From Obrimoposthia wandeli (Eukaryota): a stretch of DNA of 64,000 nt. Under the pieces are notes generated by a model. The model saw nothing but the letters and a program-made list of their open reading frames with translations. It had not been told where the DNA came from and searched no databases. The DNA lies in contig CDROCS010001491.1 in the NCBI GenBank assembly GCA_977020255.1, forward strand, positions 1,612,001-1,676,000, given 5' to 3'. This document shows, in pieces, positions 4,601-54,456 of this stretch. The translations under genes and the position numbers were made by a program. Numbering within the stretch: the first letter of the stretch is position 1; every line of letters starts with the position of its first letter.

Positions 4601-7600
4601 TTATGTTTTAACATTTTTAGAGCACTTGCCCAACTCAACCCAGGAATGCTAAAAAAGTTAAGTGGTTCTAAACCATCTTCACTGAGAGCTTTTCTTCTGA
4701 ATGTTTGAAACACGTCAGCTAATAAATATACGTCAGTCTTTAAGTAAACTAACATATAATCAACATATTTCTACAATTGGTTATTTTCCAAACATCTTGT
4801 GCTTTTTGATATTCAGTGTCTGTGATTTTATCATTCCATTTTATTGGTAAACTTAACTTATTCTGGAGGACTTTTAATGATGTAGCAAAATCATATGGGA
4901 ATATTCCTTTGCCATCAATAAGTTTAGATAGAAAAACTGATCTTGTTAATGGAATAATTGGTAATTTACTGGCTAAATTTTCCAAAGATGATTGTAAAAA
5001 TTGCAAAGAATCTATAAATCTCAGAGTTATTTGACCTAATCTTACAATCATGGCTTGAAACTTTTCCGTTGATTGTGGTATAATATTTATATCCCAGTCA
5101 GTAAATTTATTCAATGCATGTTTTAAAATATGATGTAAATCATAACCTCTGAGATTATGAAACACAATAGGTAAAGTTGGACGAAGTTTTCTTGATAAAT
5201 TACATTCATTGCATGCAGGACCTAAATACTTGCCAGTAAAGTGATCATGATCTTTAACATATTTTTCAGATGATTCGTGACATAAATAACATTCAACGGT
5301 ATTGTTAAATGTATGAATCTCTGCATTTGTTAAGGGAATCATTACGTTTTTAAGAGCATCTAAATACCATGGCAAAACCTTTTCTTTAGCCAAGTTCTCT
5401 ATTGACTGAAGAAATTTAACTATGCAGTCATCACCAACATTATATCAATTTCATCTGTACTCATAAATAACATACCAGATGCGACAGGCATATGCTTTTG
5501 ATGATAACTCTCATCTGGTACTAATACAGATTCAAAATCAGCGTAAACGACATATTTCGGTGATATAGTTTTTGACCAATCATTGAATTTAACGTACTTA
5601 TTCTTAGGCATAGTATACATTGTAGTGCTTTCTTGATTATAGTCACATAAAACTTTATGCTTTTCTAATGACAAATCGGTTTTGAAACCATGTAAACACT
5701 TTTCACACCATTTTCTGCTAATTCTAGTCGTTCCAGTTCGAATATTTAATAGTCGGTTAAGACAACTTATTCCTATATAATGAAACCGTTCCTTGGATTC
5801 TAGTAACAATAAATTAACTATAGTTCCTTCCTTCATTTTTGATTTGTATGCAACATCGATATAAGGATTCTTGATAACATCAGTTTTTGATTCTTTTTCA
5901 CTTACCTCGTTGAATATGAATACATTTATTATTATACCAGGATTTTGCAGTTCAAATTTTGATATATTTGATATTTTCATTGGCATGTCTTCGGAATTAT
6001 ATACAAAATCATTTAAAAATCTTTCATAGTTGCTTGGTCTATTTCTATGTGATTCTATTTCATTATATTTAAGTATTGACAATATTGCATAAATAAAGCA
6101 AAGATTATCAGAGTTTAGAATATTTATGACTACTTTAGATTTTGTAAGAGAATTTGGTGATTTAATATATGAATGACCTGACAATGCACAAATTTGACTA
6201 TATTTAGTAACAATAAATGCATATTCAAGTATATTCATCAATTTCCAACCACTACCTTTTTCTGAATATTCTTCAACTTTATTTTCCATTGTATCTTCCA
6301 TTTCTGAAATTATAGCATGTGAAAAAATCATTGCTCGATGCGAAGCATACCATTCTTTAGTTTCTCCATCATTCTTTTCAAACCTCATTCTAATGATGTA
6401 TTGTATCTTTGCTTTTCCCATTAATTGTACTATTCTTTCTAGTTCGTTTAATAATGAAACTGGAACCTTAAGACTTACAAGATTGAGATGATCTACTTTC
6501 ATGGATATCATTGAATAACTATTTTCTAACGATGTTTTAGTATGTATATTGTCATTTATTTTACGTTTTCGTGACGGAGTAGGAGCTGAAATTACTATGT
6601 TTGATGGTTCATTAATTATATCAGTTCTTTTGCTTAAAGCCGGTACTTTAAATAATTTTTTCTTACTATCATTTTCATATTCTTTTAAATGACTAACATG
6701 TCGACTATAAAATAAGTTGTAATCAACATTTTCAGTGCTTAAACATTGTGGACATATGAAATAATTTATCCTTTTGTATGAATAACCAAAATATTTTTTC
6801 ATTATATCATGACATACTTGAGGATTAAAATGTGTATCCGAATAACAAAAATTTGAATAAGTTTTACATATACTCATCTGATGATATGATTGATTTGATT
6901 GGACTTGAGATATTGATTGATTTGTAGACTGAATAAAAAAAATATATAAATACAATAATTTAATTATTTTACTTACAATGTTAACAAATATTAATTATAA
7001 AGGAATTTGCTTAGATGATGTATCCAAATTAAAATTTCGAACACGACCAGAACAATACGTTTATAAAGCCAAAGATTATACAATACTTATTTTTAGAAAT
7101 AAGAAATGCAGGATTATGGGATGTAAGGTACCTATTAAAAATATTTCTTACCCTTTAAGGATAAATATACTTGGTATTCAATCAATTACGATATGTGAAA
7201 ATTTAGATCAAAGTATCAATCTATTTAAATTATGGAATGTGTTACGTAATACATGTTCATTTGACCCTGAGGTTTTCCCAGGCTTAAGATTAAATATTTT
7301 CAATCCATTATGTGTAAATATTTTCACATCTGGAAAGGTCGTAATTTTAGGTCTTAGAAATTTAGATTTTCAAAATCAAGTTAACGATATCATGACATAC
7401 ATTAAAAAAAATTATATAAATACGAAACAATTTCTAATTAAATCATTCAATTTTAAATGTCTTATAAAGCCGTTCAAAAGTATTACGAGTATGATATGTT
7501 CTTCTTGGCATCTGCATGGATTCATCCAATGACTATGCCAGTGACATTATCGAAAACTTTGTACAATTACCGAGTCTCTGATTTTGACGACAAAGACATT

Positions 7601-10600
7601 CAACAATTCAATGAAGTCGTCAAATATTTGAAAATTGACATTGAACTTGAGAATGAGGGTATATTTATGCGCGGAGATAAGTGTAAATTTTATGATTGTG
7701 GTGGAACAAAGATTTCGGATATTCAAGAAGATGGAAGAAGTTGGATGCTCGAAATAAAAATTCTCGGATATAAAATAAATAAACAGAATGAAACAACTCT
7801 CATCTGGAGGATTCATACAGCGACCGAATATTTTGATGTTTAATAAATATTTAATAAATGTTGTTATTGTTATAAACATGTACTTATTCTGATATATTTA
7901 TTTTATATTAATATTTATATATAATGTTATTAACAAACAATTCGACTTTTCAAGTAGTAGGACCAAGTGGTAGTGGAAAAACTTTATTTGTTTGTAAATT
8001 ATTAAATTCAAAAATGTTTAAAAATAAATTTAATAAAATATATTGGCATCAAGGTGGTGATGGAGAAGCTGGTTTAACAAACCAAGAATTTAATAAAATA
8101 AAAAACATTAAGATTATTAACGGTTTTGATGAAAATTGGACGACAAGACTCGTAAAAGGTGATGTAATTGTTATTGATGACTTATATCAAGAGGCTAACA
8201 AAGAATCTGATTTTAATGATTTATTTACAAAAATTGCAAGACATAGAGAAGTTACTGTAATTTTTATAACCCAAAATTTATTTAATCAAGGAGGAAATCA
8301 TCGTACTCGTAATCTTAATGTACATTATTTGATTTTATTCAAAAATCCTAGAGATCAAACAGTGATAGATTTTATTGCTCGTCAAGCATTTCCTCATAAC
8401 AAGAGTTATTTAATTGATGCGTTTCATGATGCTACATCTTTACCTCATGGTTATTTATTTTTAAATTTTACTCAATCATGTCCTGATGATTTAAGAATTG
8501 TTACTGATATATTTAACCGTAATGGTATTACAGTCTATAAACAAAATAAATAATAATAATGTTTTAAAATAAAATGAATTTAAAAAGAGTATTCTTAAAC
8601 ATAGTAAAAGGACAGATAAAGATGAAGTTAAAAAATTAATAAACACTGTATTATATGATCGTAATAATATTGAATTTTCAAAAAGTTTACCTTATTTTAA
8701 AACCTTAATTGACGTACCTAAAACGAATAAAATGAAAATGTTGAAATCATTTCCAATTTATGTAGTTGATGATTTAATAAAAATTTTAAATAAAATAATT
8801 TATGGTAAAATTAAACCTGATGATAATATTTTAAAATATAAAAATTCATTAATAAATTTAGCAAATTCACGTGGTAAAATTAATAAAAGAAACATTATTT
8901 ATAATCAAAATGGCGGATTCATATTGGTCCTACTGCCCGCTATAGCATCAGTAATAGCTAGTGTTATATCTTCAAGATGGGGATAGTTGTCTTAATAACG
9001 AAAATTATAATAATATTAAATAATTACATTCTTTCGTTTTATACAAACATATAAACAGATTAAAATATATTTAACTTTTATAATAATGGGGATAAACAAT
9101 ACAAAGTTGTCTAACCTATTTATAAATTTTAATTCTTCATGCTCCAATGGAAAAGATTTGGAACAATCCAGAAGATCCAGACGGTTATACAGGGTTAGAA
9201 AAATTGACAAAAAGAGTCAAACAATCAAAAACAAACACACAAAAATGGTTAAGAAATGAATTATCATATAGTCTGAATAAACCTTTAAGACGTAAATTCC
9301 CTACTAGATCATATAAAACTAATGGTATTAATTCGTTATGGCAGATGGATTTAATGGAAATGATTCCTTATTCTTCAGTAAATAACGGATTCAAGTATAT
9401 TTTAACTTGTATTGATGTATTTAGTCGTTTTGCAAGGGCAGTTGGTGTTAAATCAAAATCAGGTATTGATTTATTACATGCAATATAATCTTTAATTGTT
9501 GATGATGTACCAGTAAATATCCAAACCGATGAAGGTAAAGAATTTTTTAATTCACATGTTAAGAAATTATTTAAAACTGAAAATATCAATCATTATTCAG
9601 TATATTCTCAATATAAAGCTGCAGTAGTTGAAAGATTTAATAGAACGTTAAGAGAACGGTTAAAGAAATATTTTACTAAACAAGGTAATAAGAAATGGGT
9701 GAATGTATTACCAAAAATTATTTATGCTTATAATAATTCTAAACATAGAGGTTTAGATGGTTTAAAACCTGTAGATGTAAATAATAAAAATGAATTTGAT
9801 ATTTTGTTGAAACAAAATCTAAAAGAAAAGAAAGTTAAATCTAAATATAAAATTGATGATTATGTTCGAATATCAAAAATAAGTACAAGTCCATTTATTA
9901 AAAATTTTAATCAAAATTGGAGTGATGAGGTTTTTCAAATTCATGATATTAATTATAAACAAAATCCAATAATGTATATTTTAAAAGATATTGATAACGT
10001 CATCATCAAAGGAAAATTTATAAACAAGAGTTACAATTAATTGATAAACCTAAACTATATCGAATACAAGAAATTTTAGAAACTAAAGGTCGTGGTAAGA
10101 ATAAACAATATTACGTAAAGTGGCACGGATACTCTGAACCTTCTTGGATATTTGCTTCTCAAATTGAATAATGTCAAAATATATTATTTTACCTAGTAAT
10201 AGTTGTCCAAGTACTCAACCTAACAATACAGCCAATCAATTTACTGTAGATTGGGAAAACTCTCTAAATTTAGATGGTGAATGGGAGGTTGCCTTGACTG
10301 AATTTGTATTTAATTATACTCCTTTAACAATACAAACTAATTCAAAAATACTTTATAAAACGGAAAAGATAGAAATGAAAACTTTCGATGTATCTTTTGC
10401 AATTTTAAATGGATTAATTTTTAATAATTTAAATACTGTTTTCAATTTCAAAATTACAAAGGATCAAAAATTAGAAATATGTACAATTAACAGTATTCAT
10501 CGAATGTTGTTAAAATTCGAAACTTTAGAAGAATCAAAAATTATAGGTTTTAATGAAATACAAAAAATTTCTAGTCATGTTATAACAAGTGATGAAATTG

Positions 10601-13600
10601 TTGACATAAATAAAAATATTCATGCTAAAATGAGAATTACAATTTATTATTTAGCTGAATATGAATACGAAATAAAATTTAATCAAAATTATTTGATACA
10701 AGATAGTTCTTCATTATGTAATATTATAGCCAGTAAATGTAATGAAATTTTTAAAAGCTGTAATATAGATTCAGACGGATTATTTGATATTTTAATAAAG
10801 AAAAATGTAAAATCAGTTTTATTTGACGAAAAACTTGCATCTTTATTAGGTTTAAATAATGTTTTCTTTGAGAAACGAATTAAAGGTTTTCAAAAACCAA
10901 CACTTTCTAACTCATATAATCAAATGTATATTTATACTAGTTTAACAGATTCTGTCTTAGTAGGATCTGATTATGTTCCACTGTTAAAGTCTATTTGGTT
11001 AAAATCATTAAAATATCGATATGGAGATGTAGTAAATGTTAAAATTGATAATCCAATGTACTTGAAAATGAGAGATTCAAGTATTAATAGAATCGAGGTA
11101 AATATACGTGATGATTCTGGTAATTTAATTCCATTTTCATATGGAGCAAAAAAACTAGTTTAACTCTTCATTTACGTAAAGTATAAACAATATAAATATA
11201 TTTAAAATATAAACATATATAAAATGAATACATCAATTATAAAATTTTATAGCAAAAGTCAACAGGGCGGTGAACTTCCCTATTTCATTGGTAAACAATA
11301 TGGATCTGGTTGGTATCAAACTATTTCTAGATTAGCTATTCCATTTATTAAAAAATTTGGTTTATCAGCAGCTACAAGTGCTGCCAATGTAATTGGTGAA
11401 ACGGTAGGAACTGCGTTAACAAATCCAAAAAACATAATTTCATCTCTCAAAGAAAATACAATCAAAGAAGTCAAAACTTTGATTCCAAAATTAAAAAATA
11501 ATGCTGTTGAGAGTTTAAATAAAGTCGCAAATTGTGTTGAACAAAATGGAAGGGTCTTAAACGTAAAAGAAATAATTTAAATAGTATAAACAAACGTCTT
11601 AAAGGTACTATTTTCCAAAAATGACTAGTATAAAATCTGAATTGTGTATTTTCGATAGATCACTACCTCAAGTAGTGATTGAAAATTCAAGTTTTGAAGA
11701 AATATTTCCAATCAATTCAATTACTGGAAAAAATTTAAATGACATAGAATTTAATATTCATGCATCTGAAGAAGATTATCTGGATTTGAATGATACTTTG
11801 TTAAATATTAAATTAAAAGTTGTAAATGAAGATGGTACTGATTTAATGAAAGATAGCGATGTAACTCCAGAGAATTACATGTTTCAAACTTTGTTTAGAG
11901 ATGTTATTCTAACACTTAATAATGTAAAGGTTGAAGGAGGAAATGGAACGTATACTCATAAGGCTATATTCGATACTCTTTTGAATTTTAGTAGTGATAC
12001 CAAGTATACTAACCTTGAATGTTCCGGGTATGATGATGATGCAGAAAGTCGTAAACAATGGATTAGTGAATCTAAAATATTTTCATTGTGTAATTCAATT
12101 AGATTAGATTTCTTTGATCAACCAAAATATTTGATTCCAGGGATTAATGTTCATTTGAGATTTATGAGAAATCAGCATAATTTTTCGCTCTATTCAGAAA
12201 CTTCAAAACCAATTATTCAAATTCTAGATGCTAGATTGTATGTTAGAAGAGTAAAAGTTGATTCTTCAGTAATGATTGGACATCAGTTAGGTTTGCAAAG
12301 TCAGAATGCAGTTTACCCAATTAGAAAAACTCAGTTAGTAACATATTCAATTCCTCAGGGTTCTTTAGAACTTAATAAAGATCAAATATTCGGAGACTAT
12401 CGTTTACCCAAGTTCATTTTGATTGCTTTCAAAGATACACCTCAGGGTGGTAAGGAATACAAAGTTAAATCTTCTACGTTCAATACATTTAATGTTTCAA
12501 CAATATCATTAGCTAAAAATACAGATTATCGAGAAACTTATAATCTAGATAATAATAATTTTTCATTAGCATATATGCAGTCAATTATTCGAAATATGAA
12601 TATTTTAGATAAAAACGTGAATAATGGTATCAGATTTTCTGATTTTAAATCAGGAAGTTCGATTTTCACTTTTCTATTAGCACCAGATTTTGATATAAAC
12701 ACTACTCAAGTGCCTAAAACTGGTAATTTAAGACTTGAAATTAGATTTAATTCTCCTTTGACCGTTCCAACAAGTGTTTTGATTTACGGAATATTTGATT
12801 CCGAAATTCAGATTACGAAAAATAAAACTGTGATTGTATGAAGTAAGCTTATTGTATATTATATTCTTTATTTAAATTAGTACTTTAGAAATTTATAAAT
12901 CCGGAAAAATATTATTGAATAACAAATTTAATGGAGTATATTCATTGGATAAAATTCCATCATTAAAACCCGGAGGCTACATTATCAATACTCATACTTC
13001 AAATCTACCAGGCGAACATTGGATAGCAATATTCGTTGACAGATTCGAGTGTTTGACCCTTTTGGATTCTATTATCCTTCAAAGTTGGTGTCTACACTTG
13101 AAAAAGAAAACATTCCAGTCTACTATAATCGAGTTAAATGTCAGAATCCATTAACTAAAAACTGCGGACCTCTGAGTCTTTTATGGTTGAAACTTCAACA
13201 CAAATAATTTGAAGTATAAACAAATATATCATTATAGTATTTCATTTTATTTTTTCAAATGGCTTTTATTGATTTAGAATGTTTTATTGATAATAATGGA
13301 GAATATATTCCAAAGGAATTATGTATAATGTATGTGAATGATATGACTTGTCCATTTCATTACGTGTTTAAAAATCAAATACCATGGAGTAGTTTATCAT
13401 TTACAGTTAAAAGAAAAAATCTATATTTGATAAATCATCATCATCAGTTATCCTGGTTTGAAGGTGAAAGCTCTGATATTCATATTGATGATGTTGAAAC
13501 AATATTCTATGTTATGGATTCTATTGATGGAAAGAAAATTAATTTAGTGAAACGAATGTTTCCAAATTTAAGAATTGTGAATTATAATAAAAGTTTCAAA

Positions 13601-16600
13601 AATTTAAAGAAAATGCCAAAAAATATTCGATGTCCGTTTAGAAAACACGGAAAACATTGTGCTTATTTGAAATGTTTTTCTCTATGTATTGATTATGTAA
13701 ATTGTATATAAATATATTTATTAAGGATATTTATTTTAATATATAATTTATGTTATTTAAATAAATTTTATCATATTTCTTTAGATGTGTAAGCCTAGGA
13801 AAAAACTTTGATCTAAATTTTCACATAGAATAGTGTATGTATGATTACGTAATACATTCCTTAACTGATAAGAGTGAACTTTAGTCTAAATTTTCACATA
13901 GAATAGTGTGTGTGTGTTAAAAACCACATTCCTTAACTGATAAGAGTGAACTTTATCCTAAATTTTCATTATGGACGATCATAGTGGTATACCAAAGAAG
14001 GGTGAAGACTAGACCACTTGACCCTTTGAATTATGGACGATCATAGTGGTTAGCCAAAAGAAGGGTGGATACTAGACCACAAGAGAAGGGTGGAGACTAA
14101 GCCACTTGACCCTTTGAATTAGTGTTAGCCAAAAAGAAGGGTGGAGACTAGATCACAAAAAGAAGGGTGGAGACTAAGCCACTTGACCCTTTGAATTAGT
14201 GGTTAGCCAAAAAGAAGGGTGGAGACTAGACCACAAAAAGAAGGGTGGAGACTAAGCCACTTGACCCTTTGAATTAGTGGTTAGCCAAAAAGAAAGGTGG
14301 AGACTAGACCACAAAAAGAAGGGTGGAGACTAAGCCACTTGACCCTTTGAATTAGTGGTTAGCCAAAAAGAAGGGTGGAGACTAGACCACAAAAAGAAGG
14401 GTGGAGACTAGATCACAAAAAGAAGGGTGGAGACTAAGCCACTTGACCCTTTAACCTATGGACGACCATAGTGGTTAGCCAAAAAAAAGGGTGGAGACTA
14501 AGCCACTTGACCCTTTAACCTATGGACGACCATAGTGGTATATCAAAGAAGGGTGGAGTCTAAGCCACTTGACCCCTCCCCTCCCCCTCCCCCTCCTCCC
14601 TAAAGGGTGTCACACCATAAGGGTGTCTTGCCACACCATAAGGGTATATGTTGCCTCACCAGAGGTGAGGCAACATATACCCTTATGGTGTGGCAAGACA
14701 TCCTTATGGTGTGACACCCTTTAGGGGGGGGTCAAGTGGCTTAGACTCCATCCTTCTACCTACTTAGTTTAAATTGGTTTTTTAATGAGATTTAATGAGA
14801 AACACGCTTTTCCTATTCGAGTGTCATATTTTACGTTGAGGTTTCAAAATGTATTTTAAATGGTCGTTAGTCAAACAAGAACGTACTTTTTTATTGAAGT
14901 TCATGATGGAGAATGTCTGCTAACATTTGTAGGTGCTGCCAAAAAGACAGAACAGTTTCATTGCGGGATCTATAAAAAAAATGTACTTTTTACCATCCAA
15001 ATTTTTGTAGAAATCCTTTAAATCCTTCTCTGTGTTTATTTCGTTACATTACCGAACATTGCTGTTCAATAACTTCCCACTGTCTCTCTGGATCAACAGA
15101 AAAAGTATCTTCAATTAGTTTTAATTGAATGTCTTCCATAGTAGATAAAGTAAATCCTTTTCCAAATTATTCAATCAATAAGTCAATTTGCTTTACAAAA
15201 TTTTCACCCAAGTCGATGGGTTTTTCTGAGGAGTATGCAGAGCACACGTGAGAAATTTTGCCTTTCATCAACTGAGTCCTGAAAAGATTCAATTGCATTT
15301 GAAAACTATTTACTATTGCAAACATTTCAAATACAAATCGATACTTCCCCTCAAACTGTTTATTCACATTATTCAGATGTTTTGTAATATCTCAAAAGAA
15401 AAAATATCCTAATTCCAAGCTTCTACTTTGAGCTCAAGGAATTTTTGTGGTTCTTTTTCAAGGACATTAGTTATTTCTTCTTTCAATGTGACAAAACGCT
15501 GAAGTACTCGTCCACAACCCAACCATCTCGTATGCCAGTGTATGGTAAAGTAAGTTGATGCACTCTAAAAGTTATATGTTTGAGTCCATCTAGATCGGAT
15601 GTAATTTCTCGAAAATAGGCGGAATTCTCGAGTTTTTTACATTAATTGATTACTGAGATTTGAGGAAATGTCAGTTATTCTTCTCTGTATAGTCATTCTT
15701 GATAGACTGACATTCTCTAATAATCTTTTTTTCTGAGCATAATCACGTAACAGCTATTAGCATACACTTCTTTGCAAACTCACCTTTTGTAAAATATTTC
15801 CCAGCAGCAGCAATTTCCCTTGAAATTTGTAAGGTTATGTTGGTACCTGTCTTATTTTGTGTAAATGTTCTTGAACATTTGTGGTATTTAAGATAGATGC
15901 TTTGATTTTTTTTTACCTTTTGATTCAAATTGGAGGGAATGTGATGTTTGGTTTTAAAGTGGAATTGAAGATCGTATTCCTTCGCAATTACTGTCGTTTC
16001 ACGACATACGAGACAAGTTATTTTGTCTTTGAACATAGAAACATATATTTGTTCGTCCATTCTGTTTCTATTTTTCTTTTTTTGTCATGCTCATGGTTAA
16101 AAATAACTGTAGAAATAAACATACACATAAACAAATATTTCGTTTTGTAATTTATTTCCATTAAAATTAATAATCATATAAATATTATATTTTAAAGTCA
16201 AATTATTGAAGTTTTGAAATAAATCATTTGTTATAACAAAATAATATACAAAAATCATATTCAATTTAAAAAAAAAAATTTTAGAAGATTTTTTCCATTC
16301 CTCATATTCGTAATGTTATAATAATATAACTACTGCGGTCCGTTTGTTGTGCAGGTCTGGGTTAACCCAATAAAATTATAAAAATATTAACAATTAATTC
16401 AAAACGATAACTGTAAATTTCAGCAGGATTTAGGCTTTACATTTTCATAGGGTAATTATATATTTTAACTAATTATTATTAAATCTATGTAATTAAATGT
16501 ATTAATAAAGTATTTTGTTTTTGTTTACTTTCAATATTAATGTATTTTGTATATAAATTAATATAATTATTAAATTTTTAAATTAATTAGTTATTAACAT

Positions 16601-22600: not shown

Positions 22601-25600
22601 TTAAAGAAATGTTTATTTATATAATTTGAGTATTAACTTTATTCGATTTACACTATAAATATTCGAAAATATCTTTAACACATTAAAAATAATCATAACT
22701 TCATGTTATTCAAAGTTTACTAGTTAAAGAAATGTTTATTTATATAATTTGAGTATTAACATTATTCGATTTACACTATAAATATTCAAAATATCTTTAA
22801 CACATTAAAAAAAATAACTTCAATTTTTAAAATTTGTATCAAATATTGAAAATTCATTTGAAAACACATGTTTTTCGTCTATAAATTCGAATATAAAATC
22901 TTTAATTATATTGTTTTATATGTAAATAAATTAAAATATGTACATATTCGATTATGAATTAAGACTAATTGTATGAATTAATACAAGTGTAAATGTAAAT
23001 AAAGGCAATTACAATTAACAATGAATGCAGGGTCAAGTACAAGTAAGAAAGAATACGAATACAATTATGAATGAATATGAATGCAAAAACAAATGTACAA
23101 GTACATGAATGAATATTAGTAAAAATATCAATGCATTTGACTTATAGTTTGAATAATGAGAGTTAGATTGAAAGTGAATGAATACAAGTATACATTCAAG
23201 TGAATGCAAATACGAGTAAGAGTTTCAGCAAGTAAATATAAAACTATGAATGAGTGACAGTATAAGTGATTGAAAATAAGAGTGTCGAGACTATGATTGA
23301 ATGAGAGTGTAATTTATACTATAAGTAAATTAAAATAGAGTTTTCGTATGAATAAAGTTATGTTAAGTTACAGTTAGATTAATAACAAGTAAGCAACTAT
23401 AGGAAGCAGTGATATTGAGTATGTTAAAAATTAGAACGACTAAGTTATGGCAAGATTAATAGAAAACAACACCAAGTTTGAAGGTATGAATGAAAATTAG
23501 TAAAATATTAATGTATTTGAATGTAATTGAAAGATAGTTTGAATAAATTACAGTTAGATTGAATGTAAATGAATGCAAGTATGATTGAATGCAGGGTCAA
23601 GTACAAGTAAGAAAGAGTACTATTGCAAGTACGAATGTCAAGTATGAATGAATATTAATAAAAATATCAATGAATTTGAGTTATAATTTGAATAAATGAG
23701 AGTTAGAATGAATGTAAATGAATACAGGTATGAATGCAAGTGAATACAAGTATGAATGCAAATACAAGTAAGAATCTTTGCAAGTGAATCTAAAACTGCA
23801 AGTGAGTACTAGCTAATTATTAAATTAATACTATCAATTAATTAAGATGTGAACTTTCATATTTTCACATAGTTTACCTCCAAGTTAAAGTTAATCTTTC
23901 ATATACATATTCATGCAATTAAATAATTAAAATGTCTTATCTCGTTTGATAAAATTCCTTAATTGAAATATTTTAAAATAATTAGTTAAATTTAAATTCT
24001 TTATTTTAAAATAACTTGATTATACAATTATATTCGGAAATATAATTGAAATTATCATTATTCTCTTTTTAACTATTCGAAACTGTATTTATATATACAA
24101 ATTTAGTAAATTAACTCAACAAACAATTTTTTTTTTAATTACTTGATATTTTTGCCATTGTCTTATTAATATAATATGAATATTCAATTTATTTCTTCAA
24201 AAATTCATTTTATATGTTAAATAATATTTCTTTATCACGTTATTGTGGTATTTTATCAAGTGATTTTAACCTTAAACTATAAAAATATTTTAATTATAAA
24301 GTTAGTAGCTGTACCTCACCGACTGCATATAATATAAATTTCAAATATAAAGTACTATTAAATGTATTCTTTTAAATAGTAAATGTTTTTTCGAGTTATT
24401 TAATTTTGTTTACTAGACATTCGAAAATTGACTTGTAAACATAATATAATTTTGCAAGAAACACCAGGCTCAAGTTTCTCATTGAGTTTTTGATGAGAAT
24501 TAATGTAATCTATTCAAACATGTACAATTTTTTTAACAGTTTGTGTTTTTATTGTAAATAAATACTCTGAACATGAGTACTTTCATTTCATTTTATTAAT
24601 TAAATGCTGTTTTTTGCATAAGACAATTAAATTATTGCACAGGGGTGCCTCCAGCCAGTGGAATGTTTCCATGGGGTTCCGCTCAAGCAAAAAGGTTGAA
24701 AAGCACTGATCTAAATGATCATACTGATGAACTTTTAAAAATATATGAAGCAACAGGTCTTACAGAAATTTTAAAATATCAAACACATTTGAAGCTAATT
24801 GAGCATATAGTTTTCTTTCCTGGGTACAGGGGTTTTGGATTATGGAGTGAGTAAGCTGGAGAATCCATTCATTTTGAATTTCTCAAGTATTTGGATTAGA
24901 TACCAGATAAATCTCCTGGATGTCCCAAAATATGGTGAGAAGCTCCAGAAAGCTGTCACAGAGTTTTCATCTCGGCATCTGTAATATTGACATCATGTCC
25001 TTTTACAATTTAGAATGGTATTTGATTTAAAAAATATGTTCATGGAATATTGTGTTATATTTTAATTAGAATTAATTGCATATTATTAACCTATAATTAT
25101 TAGCCTATTCAATTGGAAATTATGTGCTAACCCACTTTGTACTGAAACCTTTCTGTAGTTCAAAAATGTGGAATTTACACCATTGTCACCCAACAAAAAT
25201 CCAATGCTTTCTGTAACTATTTTACAATTTTCCACGTTTATGGCTTCATTCCCATTCTTCACTTTTAAATTAGTTTCTAAATGAATGGGATATTTTTGTC
25301 ATATTATTAAATTATAATTACAATAAATAAATTCGCTAAACTATATTTTATAATGTAATAACTTGGTTAATTTAAAAAGTCGATTTCTGAAAGTGATTTA
25401 AAGGTTAGCCGAACCATTTATATCATTAATACCTTTTAATACATTATATAATTAGTTCGAATATACCATTTCATTGTGTTAAGAAAATCCTCCCAATATA
25501 CAAAGTTTAGTTCTTAAAGTTCGATCTTAGGCAAATATAAAAATTGCACAACCAGTGTTTAACAATGGTGGATCACAATATTTATTGAACGTTTCAGTAA

Positions 25601-28600
25601 CTATTTATTGGAAATTCGTATTGCTTATAATTGTCAATAGTTGAGATAATATAAAGTATTCCGCACATTGCCGCTTCCAGGTCGTCATTACGGTGTTTTC
25701 TCGTGCGAAGGTTGTAAGGGCTTTTTCAAGCGGTCGATACGTGGTGGCAGCCAGTACAAGTGTCGTGGCAAGAATGACTGTGTCATCACCAAGAACTTTA
25801 GAAATCGTTGCCAGTACTGCCGACTCCAGAAATGCCTTCAGGTACATCTTATGAGTTCCTCTAATGTGGGCAATTTTATGCTAATATTACAACCCCTCAC
25901 ATGTTGGAACTCTATTGACTTCTAAAGAAACCATTTGCGTTTCTCATAAATGTAATTAGATTGATTTGTTTACAAAAATTGTTTGATATGCTAACTGACC
26001 ATTTTTTATGAAACACAGTTATTTAACATATTTTTTATTAGAAATTAACAAGGGAATTACATATGTACAAAGTACTCTCAAAAATAATTGTCTGGAATAA
26101 CATTTAAATATTTCATTCCAAAACGCATGCTAAGATTTTTAAAAATATTATTATTATTATTATATAGTTTAAATTAAAAATCAAGCTTCGAATTTTATTA
26201 AATTAATACAAATTGAATTATGCAAAAATTTATATTGTACATTTTTTTTTTAAATAAATGACTTTAACTAATATTTAGCCGTATTCCAATCAATACCACA
26301 AATTACAAACAAAAAGAAATGATGAGTTCCACGACTTTGTACATAGCGTAGCGCTGGTGACATTAAAATAAAAAAAACAATATATTTCATTCGTTGAAAT
26401 AAGAAATCATCGTAATTAGCTGAAAACTTGACAAATAGTTTGTGTTCATCTTGCCACTTACAGACATGTTTCAATCTTGTTAGACCTCATCAGACATGCT
26501 TATTAATCTGAAATTAGTCTATATTAAACAAATTTACCATAAAAGTTTGAAAATATAATTAATTTTACAAAATTGTGACAAACGAAATGTTAAATGTCTT
26601 TGTTCATTATCTAAAGCCTGCGACATAAAATATGGAGGCACATTTTATTTATAATGACAAATAATAACTCACAAATTATGGCTGCAAATGATTATAATTA
26701 CAAAGCATATTCATAATTTTTTTAAAATTAAACTTGGATATTTTAAAATTAAGAACAATGTTAAAATATTACTTTCCAAAATTCGATGGTTGCAATTCAT
26801 TATGGCCAAAGATAAACAATTTAATCTTAATGTCACTAACGCTGTGCTATGTACAAAGTCGTGAAACTTATCATACACTCAATGTTTCCCTTTGTTTGTA
26901 ATTTATGGTTTTGATTGGAGAATAGTTAAATATTAGTTAAAGTAATTTATTTTCTTAAATTGTTTTCAATATAAATTTTCACGTAATTCAATCCTTTCTA
27001 ATATTGTTTAAATGGTACGTAATGTTACTTAGGGTTTCACAAATTAGTTAAAACAATGTTAAAATTAAAAAGAATTATCGAAATTTCTCAATATCTTTAA
27101 TTAAATGATTGTCAAGTTTTTAGATCCAAGCTCAATTTAGTATGCATGTTTCCGGTGGAGTTCATATTCATGTGGTAAATTATTAGAAATATGAAGAAAA
27201 ATTATGCAACCAGTTTTTAAATGCTAATCTTGATTTGAAGCACTTGTATTTAACTTTGTCAGTTATAATATTACATAGGAACCATTTCCTACGTAAAAAA
27301 GACAGTTATGTTTAGCGACTTTGGTAGAACTACAACATGATACATTGAAATGTGAATACTTATTCATAGTCATTTAATAATTTAATAATTTATGTTTTTA
27401 AATGGGTAAACATGCAAAGTTGCCTTAAATGGAATACAGATACACGTTGATTACTGATTGAGAATAACCTCACTGGCGTTTGTGTTGCTGCAGGAGGGAA
27501 TGCGCGTAGAGTTTGTACAAAGTGAACGCAAGTCGTACCGGGCAGCATTGTACAACTTCGAGACGATCGATAATGCAGTCGGCTCAAAGCAGCGTCCCTT
27601 CCTGGTCATCAAGCCTCGAGTGGATGCCGGGGGGTTCCCTAGCTCAAATGTAGATGACAACGAAGACGATATTGACTTCCATGAGTGAGTTGACTTGTCT
27701 ACCACATGGGCGTTAATAATAATATATATAAACTCCAAAGACGTAAGGGAAGAATAAACAACCGTCCCGAGAAACGTAACTGGAGAAATATGTAAACACA
27801 ATAGACTAGGTAGGATGTGGTAATGTTGTGTGCTACCGTGTTACCTGTAAGACCTTTTCCATACTTTTGTCTGTGGATTTAAAAGTTAGTTCATGGTTTG
27901 AAACTTCGAATGTTGGCTTCTTGATCATAAAATTATCATTACAGATTCCAAAACTAAAAGCTTCAGATACGAGTTTTAGTGACTTTTTTGGTTGATTTGA
28001 TGTTATATATATATTATTGTTGTTTCATATCTAATTTTCTGCTACATGCTTTTCAGATGTATTACTAATAAACCTAACAGTATCATTCATAAAAAAATCC
28101 AGTCTTATAAATGCGTAATAATGAACTCATATGATTTAATGTAAGTAGGTGGATGTGTCCGGTCTAATCCACACCCCCCTTGTCCTTTAAAACCGCGCAT
28201 GTGTGTAGTGAAATTTCGTGTAGGTGTGTGGAGTGAAATTTCACTCCACACACATGCACGATTTTAAAGGACAAGGGGGGGAGAGGGGGTGTGGATTAAA
28301 CCGGACACATCCACCTACTAATGTATACATCCTATTATAGAAAAGTAGTTTTAAATGACCTTATATTCATTATTGAACAAACATATTCCGCAAATGCATT
28401 GTTTCACCAGATCGTTTTTATTATATTTGTGGCAAATTTACCTTTTCTGATCAAATACAGAATATGACAACAAAAATGTTAAAAAAGGATACAATGCATA
28501 TTTTAATTGCATTTTGGGTGACCTACAATGTATGGTCACATATTGTTTGCAAGCCTCGTAAAGAAATATTGCAACAGTGAGACAATGTAAATATCTTGAA

Positions 28601-31600
28601 ATGCCATTTAGCATTCCTATAATCCTGTGAGAGCCCCACAACCACGATGATGATTGCTATTTATGTATTAAAAATATAAAATAGATTGAATAAAAGAAAC
28701 GAAAGCAGTATTGTGTATCATAATTTGGACTCTGCTATGCCTCTGGTACCATAGCAGGGAAGTTCCTGCTCCCATTTCTTGTACTCATCAACAGCCGACC
28801 AGTGATACAAATATAATTTCAGAATCAGAATCTCACAACCATAATCAGTAATTTTGGTTAATGATGAAAAACCAATGCTGATGAACCAAGTAAATTAAAT
28901 AAGTGGGTAAGAGATCTATATCTCATAAAAAGTCATCGGAGCTCTTTGATTCAAAACTTCGAATTTCCTACAACAAGACAGATTTCTTGCCATCGTAATC
29001 GTGTCGAGGAGTTGCTGGAGTACATTTCAACTCCGGGTGCCTTAGTGTAATAAAACAATTTTGTGGGATTGGCAAATAAGGTGGTTGTTGATTATGTTGC
29101 CAGTGATTGGAGATTGTTTCTGGATTCATCCAAGCATAGTTTAAAAGTTGTTATACTGCATAATGGCAATACAATAAAGTCCTTACCAATCGTCCATTAC
29201 CTTATAACGAAACAACCATATTCTAACAATTTAATTTATATTAAAAAGACGAGATATTTGAAAACAAAACTTTAACAGACAATCAAAATGAAAATATGTT
29301 ACTATAATAGGTTTGTATATAAATAATTTACGTATTTTGTGAGAAAAATAGATGGGATACATATTTTAGTTTGGTTTTATTCGAATCGGTATAAAAATAG
29401 GTTAAGATACTCATTCCTTAAAAAACACAGCAGAAAAAATTCGATTTTGTTCACTGTTATGTTAATTATGCTTTTATAACAATGGTTGTGCCTATGACTT
29501 GCCTAGTTCTACTGGTTTGCTCATTTATTGTATGAACAAGTTTATTATATTGCAATGAAAGTTTATTATATTGCTTTATTGTATGTGAAACTTTGTAATA
29601 CATATTTATTGTCTAATGTCTGAGTGCTCTACCATATACGCATATTACTTTTATTTTTCAACATAAAGGTTTAAATATAAAGGAAAACTAATGTTAAGTA
29701 ATGATACAGGATTTTAAGTGATAATATCACACTCAACAATGCATAACAAATCAATTTGTTTAAAATCAAATAACTGTCGTATAGAAATCGACTTGCGTTT
29801 AGCTGCTATGTATACACATATCAGAGAGTCCCAGTTCGTGGCGGCAGACCTCACTGACACGGTGCATCAGGCAGTGGCTCCCCAGACCACTGCAACGCCT
29901 CCCTTGCTAGTCACTGAGCCCGTAAAACTGGAGACCAGTCTGCTCGATGACAAGCCAACCTCTGCTCCGTGCTCCCCGTCCCCAGAGCCGCATAATGTAC
30001 CAGTGTCACTACCCTCATTGTGCCTTCATCCAGCCAACATGCAGCTGGTCATTGAGCCAATCCCTGCTCCAGACAGCGTTACACTGGCCTTCATCAATGA
30101 CACCAGCTACAAGGTTCTCTTCCGCGTCATGGAATGGCTCGGGGGACTTTCGGTATTCGGAGATCTCAGGTGAGGCTATGTTGTAATTAAAACTAAAATC
30201 GACTACTTTCAAATGTAAATAGTTGATGAATATTTTAAATTTAATATAATTTGATGTTAACTTAAATCTATATTTACTTTTATTGTAATTAATAATATGT
30301 TAAAATTAAGTTTTGCATTATGACTTTTTCCGACTAATTTACACTAGTAACAAAATCAGTTTTTAAATATGTTAATATAATTATATTTAAACAAAATTTG
30401 CCTTATTCGCTTATCTGTGTTTTTTTATTGAAATATGGATGTCGTGAGGGTTTATGAATATTATTATGTTCTTTTAATGTTTTTTAATATCTAGTTCTTT
30501 CATTTTTTAGACAATTTGATGTAAAGTTTTGAAAATTGAATGTGTGTAAAGAAATAATACAATAAACAAAATTTTTAAATGTGATTAATGTGATTTTTAA
30601 ATGTTTAACTTAGGATAAACACGATTTTAAAAGATTAAAAAATGATAAAATGATAATTTCTAATATAATCATTTTTATCACAATTAACAATGTTTGAATA
30701 GTTTTAGATAAAATAATAAATCGTATTGTTTACCAAACTATTTCTTTAATACCTAAAGCATTATATGATTTGGATGAATCTTGGTCTAGAATAGTGTGTT
30801 AATATTTCTAAACAAATGAATCCTAATGTCTACGCATTTTTTTGGTCTTACTCACAATGTCAGTCTCATCTTCATTTGCTCATAGGAGCTTCAGTGGTCT
30901 GAAAAGACTAAAGACTTACCTTACAGCCCTGGCCCTGGTGCATATATATCGTGGAGCATCCATCTACTTCTAAAACATTTGATGCCAGGGGACACAGACA
31001 CATTGAAACCTAAGTGAGAACTATTTTTCGCTACAATATTTTTGTTTTTTTCATTTTAAGATTTTTCTTTATGTAATTTTAAAAAAATTCAAACATTTAC
31101 ATACTACGTTAGAATTGTTTTTTAAATTTGAAATAATTTCCTAACTGAAAAGGCTAACCTTTATTTTATGGCATGTACAATTTTATTTATTGGAAGTTAT
31201 TTTTATGTGTTTCCCCTTAGGTTAAATATATGGGTCCTCCTATTAATAAGATAAAATAAATATAGATAAGCTAGATTTTGCTGATAAATCAATTTTGTAG
31301 CATTTTGATTTCAAAACATCAAATTAATCATTGTTATTCAATTTTTCAATTTTTCAATCCACATTTTTATGTATTATAGACCCTCTTAGACCCACTTCTC
31401 CTTGTTTATTCACTGGGTTAGTGGTAGATAAGCGTCCTAATTGACTTCTTCTTCTTTCTCAGTTTCGAGTGCCAGTTTTGCCTGATCGGAAAATGTTGGA
31501 TCGGCCTGGTGGTGCTTGCCATGGTGGAGCTGGGACCGCACATGCATCTGGAGCTCATTCTTTCTTCCCTGTCACAGCACGTCTCCCGCCATGAGTCACA

Positions 31601-34600
31601 AAGTAAGAGCTACATTAAACAATGACAAGCTCATGCTTTTGTAGGTTTCGAAATTCGTATTTATCTTCTCGGTCGAGTGATATTTAATGTGATTTGGTCA
31701 TAACCATTAGTTAGCGCTATTTCTAGTAAATCATTATGCTTAGTAGCTATACACACTAAGGTGTCATAAAAGTAGTAAATACATGTACATTACCGGTAAT
31801 TCAGGCCATAACAATTAAATTAAAAAATACGTATAAAATATATATGCGTGGCATTATTGAGCCGAAATTTGAGTTGGAAAATTTAATTTCAAACCCGGCT
31901 TTTATGGGAAGAACAATCATCAGAGTACACATTATGTATAGGACAAACCTACATATAAAATCTTTTTCTATGTGTATTAAATTAGTGAAACGCCTACAAA
32001 ATTTGAATAAATGAGTTTCTGTACATTTTCTAACTTTATTTAATTATCAATTAACAATTATCTTTAATGAAACAATTTGGTTATCAATAAAACATGTGAG
32101 GGGTTGTAATATTAGCATAAAATTGCCCACATTAGAGGAACTCATAAGATGTACCTGAAGGCATTTCTGGAGTCGGCAGTACTGGCAACGATTTCTGGAG
32201 TTCTTGGTGATGACACAGTCATTCTTGCCACGACACTTGTACTGGCTGCCACCACGTATCGACCGCTTGAAAAAGCCCTTACAACCTTCGCACCAGAAAA
32301 CACCGTAATGACGACCTGGAAGCGGCAATGTGCGGCATACTTTATATTATCTCAACTATTATAAGTAATACGAATCTCCAATAGATAGTTAGTGAAACGC
32401 TCAATAAATATTTTGATCCACCATTGTTAAACACTGGTTGTGCCATTTTTATATTTGCCTAAGATCGAACTTTAGGAACAAAATTTTGCATATTGGGAGG
32501 ATTTTCTTAACACAAGAAAATGGTATATTCAAACTAATTATATAATGTATTAAAAGGTATTAAATATATAAATGGTTCGGCTAACGTTTATATCACATAA
32601 AGGAAAACAAAAAAGTAATTCTAAATTTTACTTTTATAATTCTCCAAAATAACTAATCTTAACTAGTCTCAATAACAACATTAACAGCTGTATTCCTCAA
32701 AGCAAGGTTATGTTGCCAATATGGTGGGATTACAAGGGAATTGCGTATTTTGAGCTTCTGATGCATAACATAAGAATCGACTCTAGTGTATACTGTCAGA
32801 AACTAACTGAATTAAACGATTCTTTGCAGTAAATACGTACAGAATTGTTATATGGTAGATGTAATGTGTTCCTTTGGGTCACTCAGACAAATATACAGGA
32901 GCTTGGCTGGGATGTTTTGCCACATCTACCATATAGCAACTATTATCTGTTTCGCTCTCTGCAAAACTCATTGTATAAGAAAACATTTCTCAAATGTCAG
33001 TATCAAAACTTACCGTGAAAATTTTATTGCTGAAAAATACCAGAAGGTTTATGAGACGGGGATCATGAAATTGTTGGAAAGATGCCAACAGATTATCGAA
33101 CAAAATGGCTTATATTCCATATTAAAGTATTTTTCTTTGTATAAAAAAGTATTTTTATTTCGTAATAAAAACGAAAATATAATTTTTTGTTGAACTGATA
33201 CAATGTTTCTGTTCTCGAATATAAGGTGTGTAAAAGAAGAATTTTTTAAAAGCCTTACCAAATTCGTCAAATTTTCATTTTCAATACAACCTCATGATAT
33301 TATAAGAATCTATATATTAAACTTTAATTCCCAATCTATGCGTCGCGACACACTAGTGTGTCGCCAAGCATATATAAGTGTGTCGCGAAAATTTTTAAAT
33401 TGCTATATGATTTCAAATTTGGAATTATTTTCGAATTATGAATTGTAATTTTCAAATTGTGAATTATCATTTTCCAATTGAGAACTATTTGAAAATTGAG
33501 AATATTATCATTTTTAAATTTGAAAACTCTCATTTAAATATAGAAAAGGAAATGAGAGTATGCTTGTCAGTAATACGTCCCAGAATTGAACGTTTGTGTG
33601 CAGAAAAACAAGCACATATTTCGCATTAATTGATTTTTAAACGTACGTATTACATTTTGTTATTCAGAATGATTTTGTTATTTAATTTTAGGTTATTCGG
33701 ACAGTGGTTGCATTTTTTTTTGGTGAGGAGGGAGAAAAAGAAACTCTTTTATGGAAACTGTAAAACTTTATCGATTTTGTTACAAATATTATTAAAGCGA
33801 ATAATAAAGTGACGAATTATTTAATAATCCATTTTTTATTTATTTAGCATTTATATCCATTTGTAACTGGTTTAGTTTCTTAAAATTTTAAATTTGATGT
33901 GTCGCGACATTAAGCGAAAAAAAAAAGTGTGTCGTTATTAAAAAAAGATTGGGAAACACTGTATTAAAGTAAAATATAATTTTTTTAAAATTATCAACAA
34001 GTGTAATCTACTCTATTTTATTGTTACTGATCAATTATGGAATTTGTACATCTAATTAATTGAAAATACTACAGAATTCTTTAGTTGTGGAAACACATTT
34101 AATGCGAACATATGAAACGTGTAAAATAAAGGACCATCATGTGAAATAGTGATGTTGACTGTTATACATGAGATTTAGAGAAAATTACAATCACATTTTC
34201 ATTCAAGTATAAGACAATTCAGTACTGTTCACAATTAAACCTTTCTCGCAGAATTGGCCGGTGCAGACAGTCTCCTACTGGAGATCCGGAAACTCGATGG
34301 GGTCAGAAAAATCCTCTCACAATCTCCGCTGTCCGGCATTGACTTTGCCTATCTGCGTTGCTTTTTATTATGCACCGAAGGTAACTGGCATAGTTGCCGC
34401 TATTGCGATTATTTTACTCACAAACAAACCACTCGAACTTCTGTAAAAGTGAGAGAGATCATCTATATAAGAGTTCTAGTGCTGGATCCAGGAAGTGTGT
34501 CATAAAGTTGTATTACGCGTCTAAGGTTTTAAACATTTCACATTTTAATATAAAATTTAAAAGTTATTGACTGAATCATCAATAAAAAATTAAACTGCGT

Positions 34601-46870: not shown

Positions 46871-48529
46871 GCGCATGTTTCAAAAGTCAACTTAACATTG
46901 TAAAGCCGAATTAAAACCAATAACCCATCCTACATCACCGATGAAAATAACCGCGGTGGATATATTAGGACCATTTCCAGAAACTATTAAAGGATATAAA
47001 TATATACTTGTCTTTTCAAACTATCTAACTAAATGGACTGAGGCATTTGCTTTACCAAATCAAAAAGCAGAAACAATAACCAAAATATTTACTGAAGAAA
47101 TACTATTGAGATTTGGACCACCAGTGAAGATAATTACTAATCGTGGAACAAATTTTATGAGTGACGTAATCGCAGAAGTAATGAAATTCTTTCGAATAAA
47201 AAAACTAAATACTTCTCCTTACCATCCACAAACGAACGGGCAGGTAGAAAGATTTAACCATACTTTAGAAAATATGCTATTCGCATATGTTAATAATAAA
47301 CATGGCAACTGGGTTGAATATATCGCAACATGTCCATTCGTCTATAGAAACACTAATCATTCAACTACCAAATAAACACCTTTCTTTTTAATGTTTTACG
47401 CGAATTTCGAATGCATACAGGCCTGAATTTTCTACTACCTTTGGATCAATACATGGCAACACCAACCTAAGTAGTTACTATGAAAGAGCGTTTGAAAGAA
47501 GCTAGGGAGAAAGCAAATTTAAATATTAAAGTTTCCCAAGAATATAAGAAGGAAAATTATTATAAAATTGGTAAACAACATAAATTTCAGACAGGCGACA
47601 AAATATTAATTTGCGTACCGTTACATCAGATAGGTTTAACAAAAGAAGTTCCATAAACCATACGAAGGGCCATATGAAATTATCGAAGTAATTGAACCAA
47701 ATTTAACAGTAAAATCATTAGTTAAAAAAGAAATACAAACAGTTCATGTAAATAAATGTAAACCTTATTACCAGACTCAAGACAACCAAAGATATAATTT
47801 GAGAAGCAATATACTTCCACAGGTCAATATTACAAATACATTTTTCGCAATTATTACTCTAGCAGTAATTGCTTCATGCTGCGGTGTCTAAACAAAAATA
47901 AAATTATGGACATATGCTATGCACCTATATTTATGGCAAAACAGAAGTACTTATAATTTTGAAATTTACACATTACCAAGAATATTTGATATAATCATAA
48001 AGGTATAACCAAATGTTGGTACATGTTGTGAACTTATAACATGTGGAAACTCAAAAAATTCTTATACAATAGTGAATAAATCATCAATAAATGCATTTGT
48101 ATGCAAACATATGTTACCATACAAAATGTTTCAAATAAAAATTCGGGAAAAGACAACATATTTCAATTCTTTGTCAGAACATTACAATTTTTACATCAAC
48201 CAAAGAACTTACATATAAGATCAGTACAAGAAAAATATATATTTGAGTGGAAAAGCTTACTTAGCGTGAACAAATTTAACCCAACAGGCTCCAAAAACCA
48301 AAACATTAATACTGATATATACCACGAAGTGAATATTTATAATCTACAAAAAAACACACTCCCCTACAAATAAGTAAATGAAATAATAAATACAAAACAC
48401 TCTACAAAATAACAATAACATGTTCTATACAAGAGTGCGACATGCTCTAAAAGTATTTACTTTAACATCGCAATACACAAGAATAAAGAAAAGATCTGCG
48501 GTGGCCCGACAAGCAATATATATATACAG

Positions 48530-50041
48530 GGTCGCGAATGGGATGGTCTCACTCCCTATGCTACTCCAACTTCGATAGCAGACAATACAGTGCCTGGACC
48601 ATTCAGAAGGCCACAATCTTCGATACGTGATTTTAGGAGAATAAAGGCGACGAATGAGGTTAGACTTAATTTATTTCAAATGTTTTTAAATTTCATTTTC
48701 AGAATCTTCAACTAGCTATAACACCGTCAGTGACCACGGCGGAGAGACTGATTGAACCTCAATACATGGTGAGTCAATCCAGCCAGGAAGAGCCGAGGAG
48801 TGAATACCAATACCTACCGACTCCGAATAATATTGAGGTAAATTATTTTAAATTAGATAATAATTTTAATTATTCACATAGGAAGCAGACTTGGTAGAGG
48901 AAGTTCTGGAGGAGGCAACCCTCAAACTATCCCTGGATAGGAGGCAGGAGGTGGTGAGGAAACCGCGACGACATCAGGTGAAAACATCAACAGTCCACAG
49001 GAAGAAGGCAAAGTTGGTGAAACAGGCAAACCTGCCTGTTATTGAGGTAAATTACTAATATACTTAAATTTTATTAATGCTTTTTTTGCAGGAACCTGCA
49101 ACACTTATTGAAGATGGTTTAGAGAGGCCACAACAATTCCAGGGATGTGGAAGCAGAAGGCAGTGGTACAAAAAACCAAACGCATTAGAAAGGCGAAAAA
49201 CAATATTCTCCAGTCTACCGAGACATCAATGGAGCATCAGGATAAACTTCCTTATACTATTATTGAGGTAAATTTTAAAATTTTAAAATATTTTATTAAT
49301 TATAATTTTTTATAATATTTTACTAATATTTTTTTAATGCAGGGTCCTTTAAAGGTAATTGAGGATACTTGGGGAGAAATTTCTCCTTTCCCGCAGAAAC
49401 GGACGAAGCGAACAGAGGTGCGGAAGACGAAACGCTCGAGAAAATGTCGCACCACAATGCTCATTTTTCTGAGGTGGGGATTGGCCAGCAGGAGATTCTC
49501 CCATCTCCAGTAGACGACGGACCAATTATGTACGAGATGATACCAGTCAACGACCCCTGCAGGAGACGGCACCAGCTCCATTAAACATCAGCCAAAATTT
49601 GGCCAGGGCTTGGGAGACTGCTTCTCCTCGTCCAACAACCAGCCAGAACTTGAAGAGGGTCTGGGATGAAGCTGGATTGGACGAATTCCTGGCGGAATTG
49701 GATACTCCGCAACCGGCAATGCTTCCAGATTCGCGAGGGCAGCAGGATGCCGTCTCATCCCAGCTTCAGCGCGAGGAGAAATTGAAGAAAGCTCCGCAGT
49801 AAAGGAAGGCTACAACTTCTTCATCGTTGCTATCAACATTGGCTGCACCTCCTCCCAAAACGTTGCGGCAACTACTGCCAAAACCTCAGGAAAGGTCAAT
49901 TAATGCACAGCAACCGGTGCAGCCGAAAAAGAAGCCAGTGTCGCTTACTCCTATAACACTCAGTCGGAGGGATATCGATGAGGTTGATCCCAACAAAGAC
50001 TTTGTGAAGTGTTTTGGAAAGAATATACCTTGTAAAAAATA
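48530..50041 (+). pseudogene. Multi-exon gene for a disordered protein (SQNLxRxW / LDEFLAEL family), block A copy
   Basis: Exons 48530-48658, 48703-48837, 48882-49046, 49092-49267, 49343-50041. Four phase-0 introns of 44, 44, 45 and 75 nt. Frameshifts and a TAA in the later exons. Confidence 0.7.
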
Positions 50042-50416
50042 ATTTTATGTGTTTTGTTTTATTTTTAAATTTTTATATTTTTTTTTTACAAATTTAGAAA
50101 TATTAAAATACAATCATAAATTTACTAAAATATAAAGTTGAAAAATAAAAAAAATAGGTAACTTATTCGAATGTGATAGGATTAATTAATAATAAAATTC
50201 TACATGTCTTCAAACTTCTTTAATTTCAAAAAGATAAGTATTAAATTTATATAGAAATGCAATGATTAGTTATTGATTTATTAAATTATAAACTCTCATT
50301 TGATAAATAAAAGTATATCATTTAATTGAATGTGATAAGATCAAAAATATTTTAAATTTATATATATAGGCTCAAATTTATTAACCTCTTCATAAATAAA
50401 ATTGAAATTTACTTAA

Positions 50417-50700
50417 ATGCAAAGTTTCGTGACGAAAATAGAAGAAATTATCAGAAGAAATGATAAGAAAGGAGATTTAAGAAAAAGGATCCTCAATCAG
50501 AATCTTTACGTTGTTGTCGCGACTGAGTAGAATCGTCGGGTGGTGATTCTAGACAGACGTCCAGCAGAACGACAACGGATCCTGGATTTTAATAGGAAGA
50601 AAGAATTGGAGTAAAGGAAACTGGATGAAAAAATAATAGTGTAGATGGCGGACAATCGCCGAGCAGCAAGAAAGAGAATCCTCCAGATTAAACCTGAATT
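50417..50700 (+). pseudogene. Degenerate paralog of the 55621-55941 coiled-coil (SERTA-like?) gene
   Basis: MQSFVTKIEEIIRRNDKKGDLRKRILNQNLYVVVATE*NRR. Confidence 0.75.
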
Positions 50701-53465: not shown

Positions 53466-53509
53466 GGCTTTACTGTGAGACGTTTTGATTATTTCTAAGG
53501 TGTTGTTTC

Positions 53510-54244: not shown

Positions 54245-54456
54245 CAGTGTCGGTGTATTGTACTGTATGATGTAGTTGTTGATTTCTTTAAATCAGGAAC
54301 TATTTCCGTGGCTGGAGCCTATCTCCTGTGCTTTCTTTGTTGGCATTAGGCAACTTAACAAGCCTAGTGCTAGCAATCTTCGATACTGATCTCTGGGTAC
54401 TGTTGCTGTAATCGCACTCGTTTTTTGTTGTTTCTTCCTTTTTTCGGAATATTTAT

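Follow-up and report, generated by a model that had tools for sequence, protein, structure and literature searches.

Non-autonomous Polintons described so far are, to our knowledge, kilobase-sized. The exit of animal Polintons from the chromosome and their replication have been inferred rather than observed. In copy-back and snap-back defective genomes and in parvoviral flip-flop hairpins, a terminus is copied back through a bulged terminal hairpin. Inverted-repeat template switching and snap-back repair give products which resemble the inverted-flank class described below. Casposon solo-TIRs, according to the accessible part of PMC4779613, are remnants of a self-synthesising element which arise repeatedly from full-length copies and match one TIR. 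The MITEs Gnome, Elf, and Goblin were born from Ozma through microhomology, by deletion between homologous sites, and were later amplified to at least 116 identical copies beside a single-copy parent (PMC3814204, available sections).

In our study, a 64,000-nucleotide stretch of Obrimoposthia wandeli DNA (hereafter the window) was found to contain a 176-bp element with the ends of a Polinton, which belonged to a family of similar miniatures. Like the deletion derivatives of Polintons/Mavericks, which here formed a size continuum up to 9.6 kb, the miniatures contained parent termini and a 6-bp TSD and were devoid of coding capacity; unlike them, they were only about 180 bp long and were a stereotyped product set by the internal hairpin of the TIR. 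They were terminal-repeat remnants, as are casposon solo-TIRs and solo-LTRs, but in contrast to the one-TIR casposon remnants of PMC4779613 (accessible part) they retained the TSD and two complete termini, owing to the direct repeats that arise from the TIR palindrome. A miniature with both termini could still be a substrate of the integrase. As in the Ozma group (PMC3814204, available sections), several miniatures came from one parent, whereas only one identical pair was found among 55 copies here. The loop forms of a second family (family B) were similar to parvoviral flip-flop, although the miniatures are known here as chromosomal, TSD-flanked copies. The inverted-flank class differed from general template-switch products in being tied to a transposon end and in recurring in two families. 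The TIR and TSD features agreed with the accessible parts of PMC4196379, PMC3014272, and bioRxiv 2023.08.22.554363. No mention of such miniatures was found in the available parts of bioRxiv 2025.02.07.637071, bioRxiv 2024.01.15.575659, PMC6431247, and PMC12220804, and no description of sub-200-bp Polinton derivatives was found in the searchable literature, outside which lie Repbase and most subscription papers and supplements.

Structure and Site of the 176-bp Element

The element was a near-palindrome at 28144–28319 with AGTAGG...CCTACT ends, flanked by the TSD AATGTA at 28138–28143 and 28320–28325 (forward strand), and the sequence bore out the earlier note in its extent, termini, and TSD. 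Its bases 1–138 (28144–28281, forward strand) aligned with the left end of a 16.5-kb Polinton (G000:C301:99537-116022, hereafter the C301 Polinton), with 134 of 137 positions identical. This part contained the terminus, C tract, outer stem arm with a duplicated unit, palindromic centre, inner stem arm, and inner G run, in that order. The 31-bp terminus (AGTAGG..., 28144–28174, forward strand) is likely the integrase attachment and priming end, and its first 17 bases were found at 19,760 exact occurrences in the genome (G000). A perfect 30-bp palindrome at 28224–28253, with the centre GAAATTTC, formed the centre of the TIR hairpin, followed by the presence of the G tract (at about 28276–28290) and the right terminus (...CCTACT) at 28276–28319 on the forward strand. 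The 3′ part was identical to the right end of the C301 Polinton at 69 of 71 aligned bases. The element combines the left hairpin and the right terminus of a subfamily within a sister Polinton family (family A), which agrees with the earlier proposal of a folded-back TIR end from a sister family. The predicted DNA fold was one bulged hairpin of −74.1 kcal/mol (z = −16.6), and none of 200 shuffles was equally stable. The element had no match in Rfam.

The host site was an old AT-rich repeat, and the paralogues L063, L064, and L066 span the site without the miniature. The site seems to lie within an intron of a nuclear-receptor-like gene, the zinc-finger exon near 25660–25845 presumably being nuclear-receptor-like, as judged from its motif. 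Both junctions were present in the contigs of run X1 and the right one in those of run X2; the two runs represent one sample, probably the source of the assembly, and their support is thus not independent. No empty allele was found among the joints listed in the run contigs of this sample. The same exon and its flanks were present as an inverted duplication (91–99%) at 25384–25905 and 32091–32605, 6.2 kb apart. The inverted repeat 25384–32605, which encloses the miniature, was rejected as a transposon and is an inverted exon duplication.

The Parent Polinton

Ten long ends carrying the family A terminus were followed up to 20 kb; five closed with a TSD (0–1 mismatch), giving TSD-flanked elements of 4.9–16.5 kb, and five remained unclosed within the stretch followed. 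The C301 Polinton contained the hairpin TIR at both ends, the TSD TGTGTG, and rve (E = 1.2e-13), DNA_pol_B_2 (one piece, E = 3.4e-5), and Pox_A32 (E = 4.3e-5) domains. Its pPolB was broken, and a pPolB match of E = 1.1e-25 was found in the C197 copy. A parent with a TIR starting AGTAGGTGGATGTGTCC had been predicted, and the C301 Polinton, with its integrase, pPolB pieces, and ATPase, is such an element. The miniature is Polinton-derived, in that it shares its termini with an element coding for pPolB and a retroviral-like integrase and has a TSD fixed at 6 bp. No double-jelly-roll capsid was found in the parent by Pfam. The capsid-like ORF of the C48 copy had atlas neighbours at 0.97, with PF21738 (DJR-like) in 15–65% of members and a recognition score just below the tool threshold, which hints at double-jelly-roll neighbours. 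The 39-bp hairpin core was found 2,875 times in the genome, and a sample of 30 comprised 24 long-element ends and six miniatures; family A parents outnumber the miniatures. A search pattern for the truncated inner arm (253 matches) hit mutated outer termini instead and led to the parents.

The 1.35-Gb genome had a very high Polinton load: the 19,760 family A and 8,588 family B termini correspond to roughly 14,000 Polintons or their remnants. In the window, a broken internal fragment of family A without termini was present at 54857–61058, its pieces being 83–98% identical to the C301 copy (pPolB 87–97%), and no further terminus motifs for it were found in the window. A broken, partly duplicated Polinton body extended over about 48500–61058, where the pieces at 48535–50698 were only 74–78% identical to C301. 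Elsewhere, Polinton ends were nested within the TIR of another family A element (L103:164-276 and L099:9869-9935). Two pairs of oppositely oriented Polinton ends, with spacings of 11 and 30 kb (L044/L051 on C1111 and L080/L081 on C197), contained the same flank beside both ends and are large inverted duplications in place of a TSD.

Copy Number, Size, and Target Site Duplication

The search of its own genome with the miniature gave 3,504 candidates, and the 40 scored were all full-length and 89–100% identical; on the basis of these 40, the element is a member of a family and not a chance hairpin. Exact-terminus patterns gave 403 two-terminus structures, of which 75 were 128–158 bp, 296 were 159–189 bp, and 32 were 190–220 bp long. 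The miniatures represented about 4% of the family A termini. An exact 6-bp TSD was found in 24 of the 30 loci first cut out and in 64 of the 93 distinct family miniatures examined, whereas a TSD of 4 bp was found once and those of 5, 7, and 8 bp were not found among the 93; flanks shuffled in 10,000 rounds gave a mean of 0.79 6-bp matches and a maximum of 5. The 6-bp length given for the window copy is fixed in the family. An unbiased set of 47 loci, taken from the first 50 of the 296 patterns listed (the other three were already in the BLAST set), contained 35 with a TSD (0–1 mismatch), eight with inverted flanks, and four with neither. The miniatures L014 and L017 were located within Polinton bodies, and the flanks overlapped by exactly 6 bp on the empty copies.

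The miniatures have the shape of MITEs, being short, non-coding, homogeneous in size, and equipped with TIRs and a TSD. Amplification of the MITE type was not found: the 403 miniatures compare with 19,760 termini, and many junction types were present. The idea of a Polinton-mobilised MITE class was not supported, given the excess of parents, the lack of sub-lineages, and the many independent origins. TSD-flanked deletion forms of 100, 297, 448, 640, 808, 1,133, 4,862, and 9,630 bp were also found. Two-terminus forms smaller than the miniatures were L143 (100 bp, TSD CACACT) and L077 (73 bp, without a clear TSD).

Junction Types and Divergence

Each TIR carried an internal inverted copy of about 57 bp, and therefore the inner arm on the left and the outer arm on the right are direct repeats. 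Every miniature was a join at this arm repeat, either at the GAAATTTC centre or at the G run, and all of the predicted join types (0, 1, or 2 duplicated units; long or short right tract) were present. In sequence, the miniature has the form of a solo-TIR-type remnant, a direct-repeat join of the two ends of the parent with the TSD retained. In the unbiased set, a long left with a short right tract was found in 17 miniatures and the reverse in two (p = 7e-4), and a short outer tract was found in only two of 24 long ends, which indicates that many joins occurred in the G run. The window copy belonged to the rarer type with the short left tract.

Among 55 TSD-flanked miniatures with one duplicated unit, 50 singleton and nine shared substitutions were found; eight of the nine shared ones were G>A, in two to three copies. 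No substitution was mirrored on the two arms, against 50 unmirrored ones. The only identical pair (L021 and L022) was located at different sites, and no sub-lineages with diagnostic changes were found among the 55. The divergence per 67 columns was 1.03 in the miniatures (n = 30) and 1.25 in the long hairpin ends (n = 24; p = 0.70), or 1.5 and 1.9%, an equality that does not separate the models. Counted by strand, the second base of the target site was A in 62 of 128 for miniatures and 41 of 80 for parents. The births of the miniatures are recurrent and independent, without sign of later amplification.

The Inverted-Flank Class

About one in six of the apparent miniatures (8/47 in the unbiased set) was devoid of a TSD and was a fold-back at an integrated Polinton end. 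Among all loci examined, the flank of 12 was copied in inverted orientation for 16–208 bp past the second terminus, and nine of the 12 then resumed in the subterminal repeats of the Polinton, apparently at 2–4-bp microhomology, as judged by eye. In L007 and L211, a complete miniature passed directly into the Polinton body without an inverted host flank. Since the inverted-flank class needs flanking host DNA, it arose at integrated ends, and it shows that synthesis switches template at the TIR hairpin. These structures look like miniatures, yet they are not mobile units. An artefact of folded-back reads is an unlikely source, as the copies were short, five of 12 differed from their source (93–99% identical), and nine of 12 resumed in the body. 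The earlier note had suggested that a terminal hairpin is released and integrated on its own; the fold-back at the hairpin stands, whereas the release and spread as a MITE class found no support. The fold-back loci were L010, L019, L120, L125, L203, L207, L213, L228, L233, L237, L238, L251, and L252, some of which carried the duplicated unit on the outer arm and others on the inner one.

The Family B Polinton of the Window and Its Miniatures

The window contained a family B Polinton at 2308–14764, with its own hairpin TIR, the TSD TAGTTT, pPolB, the A32 ATPase, and an integrase homologue at 9147–9818. Its TIR contained the same parts in the same order as the miniature (terminus, C run, hairpin with a one-sided duplication, G tract, and partial complement of the terminus), which confirmed the shared layout described earlier; the first 39 bp of the two termini were only about 62% identical. 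This Polinton was rejected as the parent of the 176-bp element: among the best 30 TIR matches, none had a close within 300 bp (one was at 347 bp), and the miniatures of family B have a different sequence. Genome-wide, family B had 8,588 exact termini and 11 miniatures of 186–213 bp, eight with a TSD and two with inverted flanks. These came from several subfamilies, were nearly all different, and each represented its own subfamily variant on both arms. Family A had far more miniatures per terminus (296/19,760, counting a single size bin of 31 bp) than family B (11/8,588).

The hairpin loop triplets of 30 family B ends (L031–L060) were TCT in 17, TCC in seven, GGA in three, and AGA in one, representing flip and flop forms; the loops of the window element are located at 2409–2411 and 14661–14663, and the duplicated unit is present in different numbers in its two TIRs. 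An ORF with a TATA-binding-protein domain (PF00352, E = 5.6e-12) was present inside this Polinton at 6978–7532 (forward strand). A second family B left end, from 19601 to about 21500, contained a non-palindromic interior and a different set of subterminal repeats, and no right end for it was found among the AGTAGG sites checked. At 46941–47375 and 63335–63748, the window contained a fragment of an unrelated rve integrase, at 24% to that of the Polinton, and an ORF with a RING finger.

Origin of the Miniatures

We consider the window miniature to be the solo-TIR-like scar of an integrated Polinton that collapsed in place, with a probability of about 0.55. The trigger would be a break or stalled synthesis within the element, during the repair of an excision gap or by stalling of a fork at the hairpin, after which a nascent strand with the inner arm at its end would pair with the complementary outer arm. 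Pairing with the far end would delete 10–16 kb and keep the original TSD, giving a TSD-flanked miniature, and pairing with its own end would give the inverted-flank class; each miniature would be a separate birth, not copied from another one. We favour this reading because a single in-place process accounts for the range of junctions, for the absence of lineages, and for a ratio of the two classes that is similar in both families. The TSD would be left equally by a collapse in place, and hence it cannot separate insertion from collapse. Some points count against collapse. A homology of about 57 bp across 10–16 kb is short for ordinary recombination, and the excess of miniatures per terminus in family A could be explained by some amplification. 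If collapse had been slow and spread over a broad range of ages, the miniatures would be older than the long hairpin ends, which they were not; the substitution counts of both were near Poisson, and a single burst could hide an age difference. No pair of a full Polinton and a miniature, as alleles or paralogues of one site, was found in the flank comparison of the examined loci or, for the window site, in the run contigs of one sample, a thin sampling, and the flank search for a second allele of L021, whose flank is a repeat, found none.

It is possible, though less probable, that the miniatures are instead copy-back defective genomes. An extrachromosomal, protein-primed nascent strand would fold back at the TIR hairpin and run off the free terminus, and the resulting molecule of about 180 bp with two complete ends would be inserted by the integrase with a fresh 6-bp TSD and little further spread. 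The recorded fold-back speaks for this, since fold-back copying of a free end would finish flush with the terminus, as in the loci L007 and L211; so do the target preference shared with the parents and the family B flip and flop triplets, which fit hairpin copying. The divergence equal to that of the parents and the lack of mirrored substitutions fit birth at or before insertion, and the racket-like model of the Polinton intermediate brings both TIRs together (PMC4196379, accessible part). Yet a replicon 100-fold shorter than its parent and with two full ends should outnumber it and leave clonal bursts, neither of which was seen, and the inverted-flank class is chromosomal, with a similar ratio to TSD-flanked miniatures in both families, which suggests one shared in-place process. 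The broader proposal, that hairpin Polintons shed such two-ended molecules of about 180 bp, inserted genome-wide by the integrase as the smallest Polinton-mobilised unit, can be held only tentatively. We regard as unlikely a true MITE family, in which the Polinton integrase would have amplified, in trans, one or a few founders that had been excised or copied. The hundreds of homogeneous copies of 168–187 bp with complete termini and TSDs, the sharp size peak (296 against 75 and 32), the insertions at unrelated sites and, with clean 6-bp overlaps, in Polinton bodies (L014 and L017), and the identical pair at different sites would suit such a family, but diagnostic sub-lineages were absent, many junction types and parent subfamily variants were present, the family B miniatures were nearly all unique, and parents outnumbered miniatures. 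An unrelated cut-and-paste MITE (Ginger, Sola, or similar) shares the general MITE shape alone and is, like an assembly artefact, highly improbable given the 134/137 identity to a Polinton end and the junctions backed by run contigs. Ginger elements have TGT termini and 4–5-bp TSDs (PMC2836005, available part), whereas the miniatures have AGT and 6 bp, which excludes a Ginger-type origin.

Significance

The miniatures and the inverted-flank ends number in the hundreds and represent, in two families, the fossil products of reactions at a single defined hairpin. If the miniatures are scars of collapse in place, Polintons have a solo-LTR-like exit, which possibly marks sites of excision, and a clean TSD around a MITE-shaped element does not by itself mean that the element moved. 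Integration as free molecules would instead imply that about 180 bp are enough for Polinton integration; under copy-back, a by-product similar to defective-interfering genomes would define the smallest set of cis signals with which a Polinton replicates and integrates, and would document, in the genome of an animal, that free Polintons replicate. Local inverted duplication of host DNA is a further effect of the TIR hairpin.
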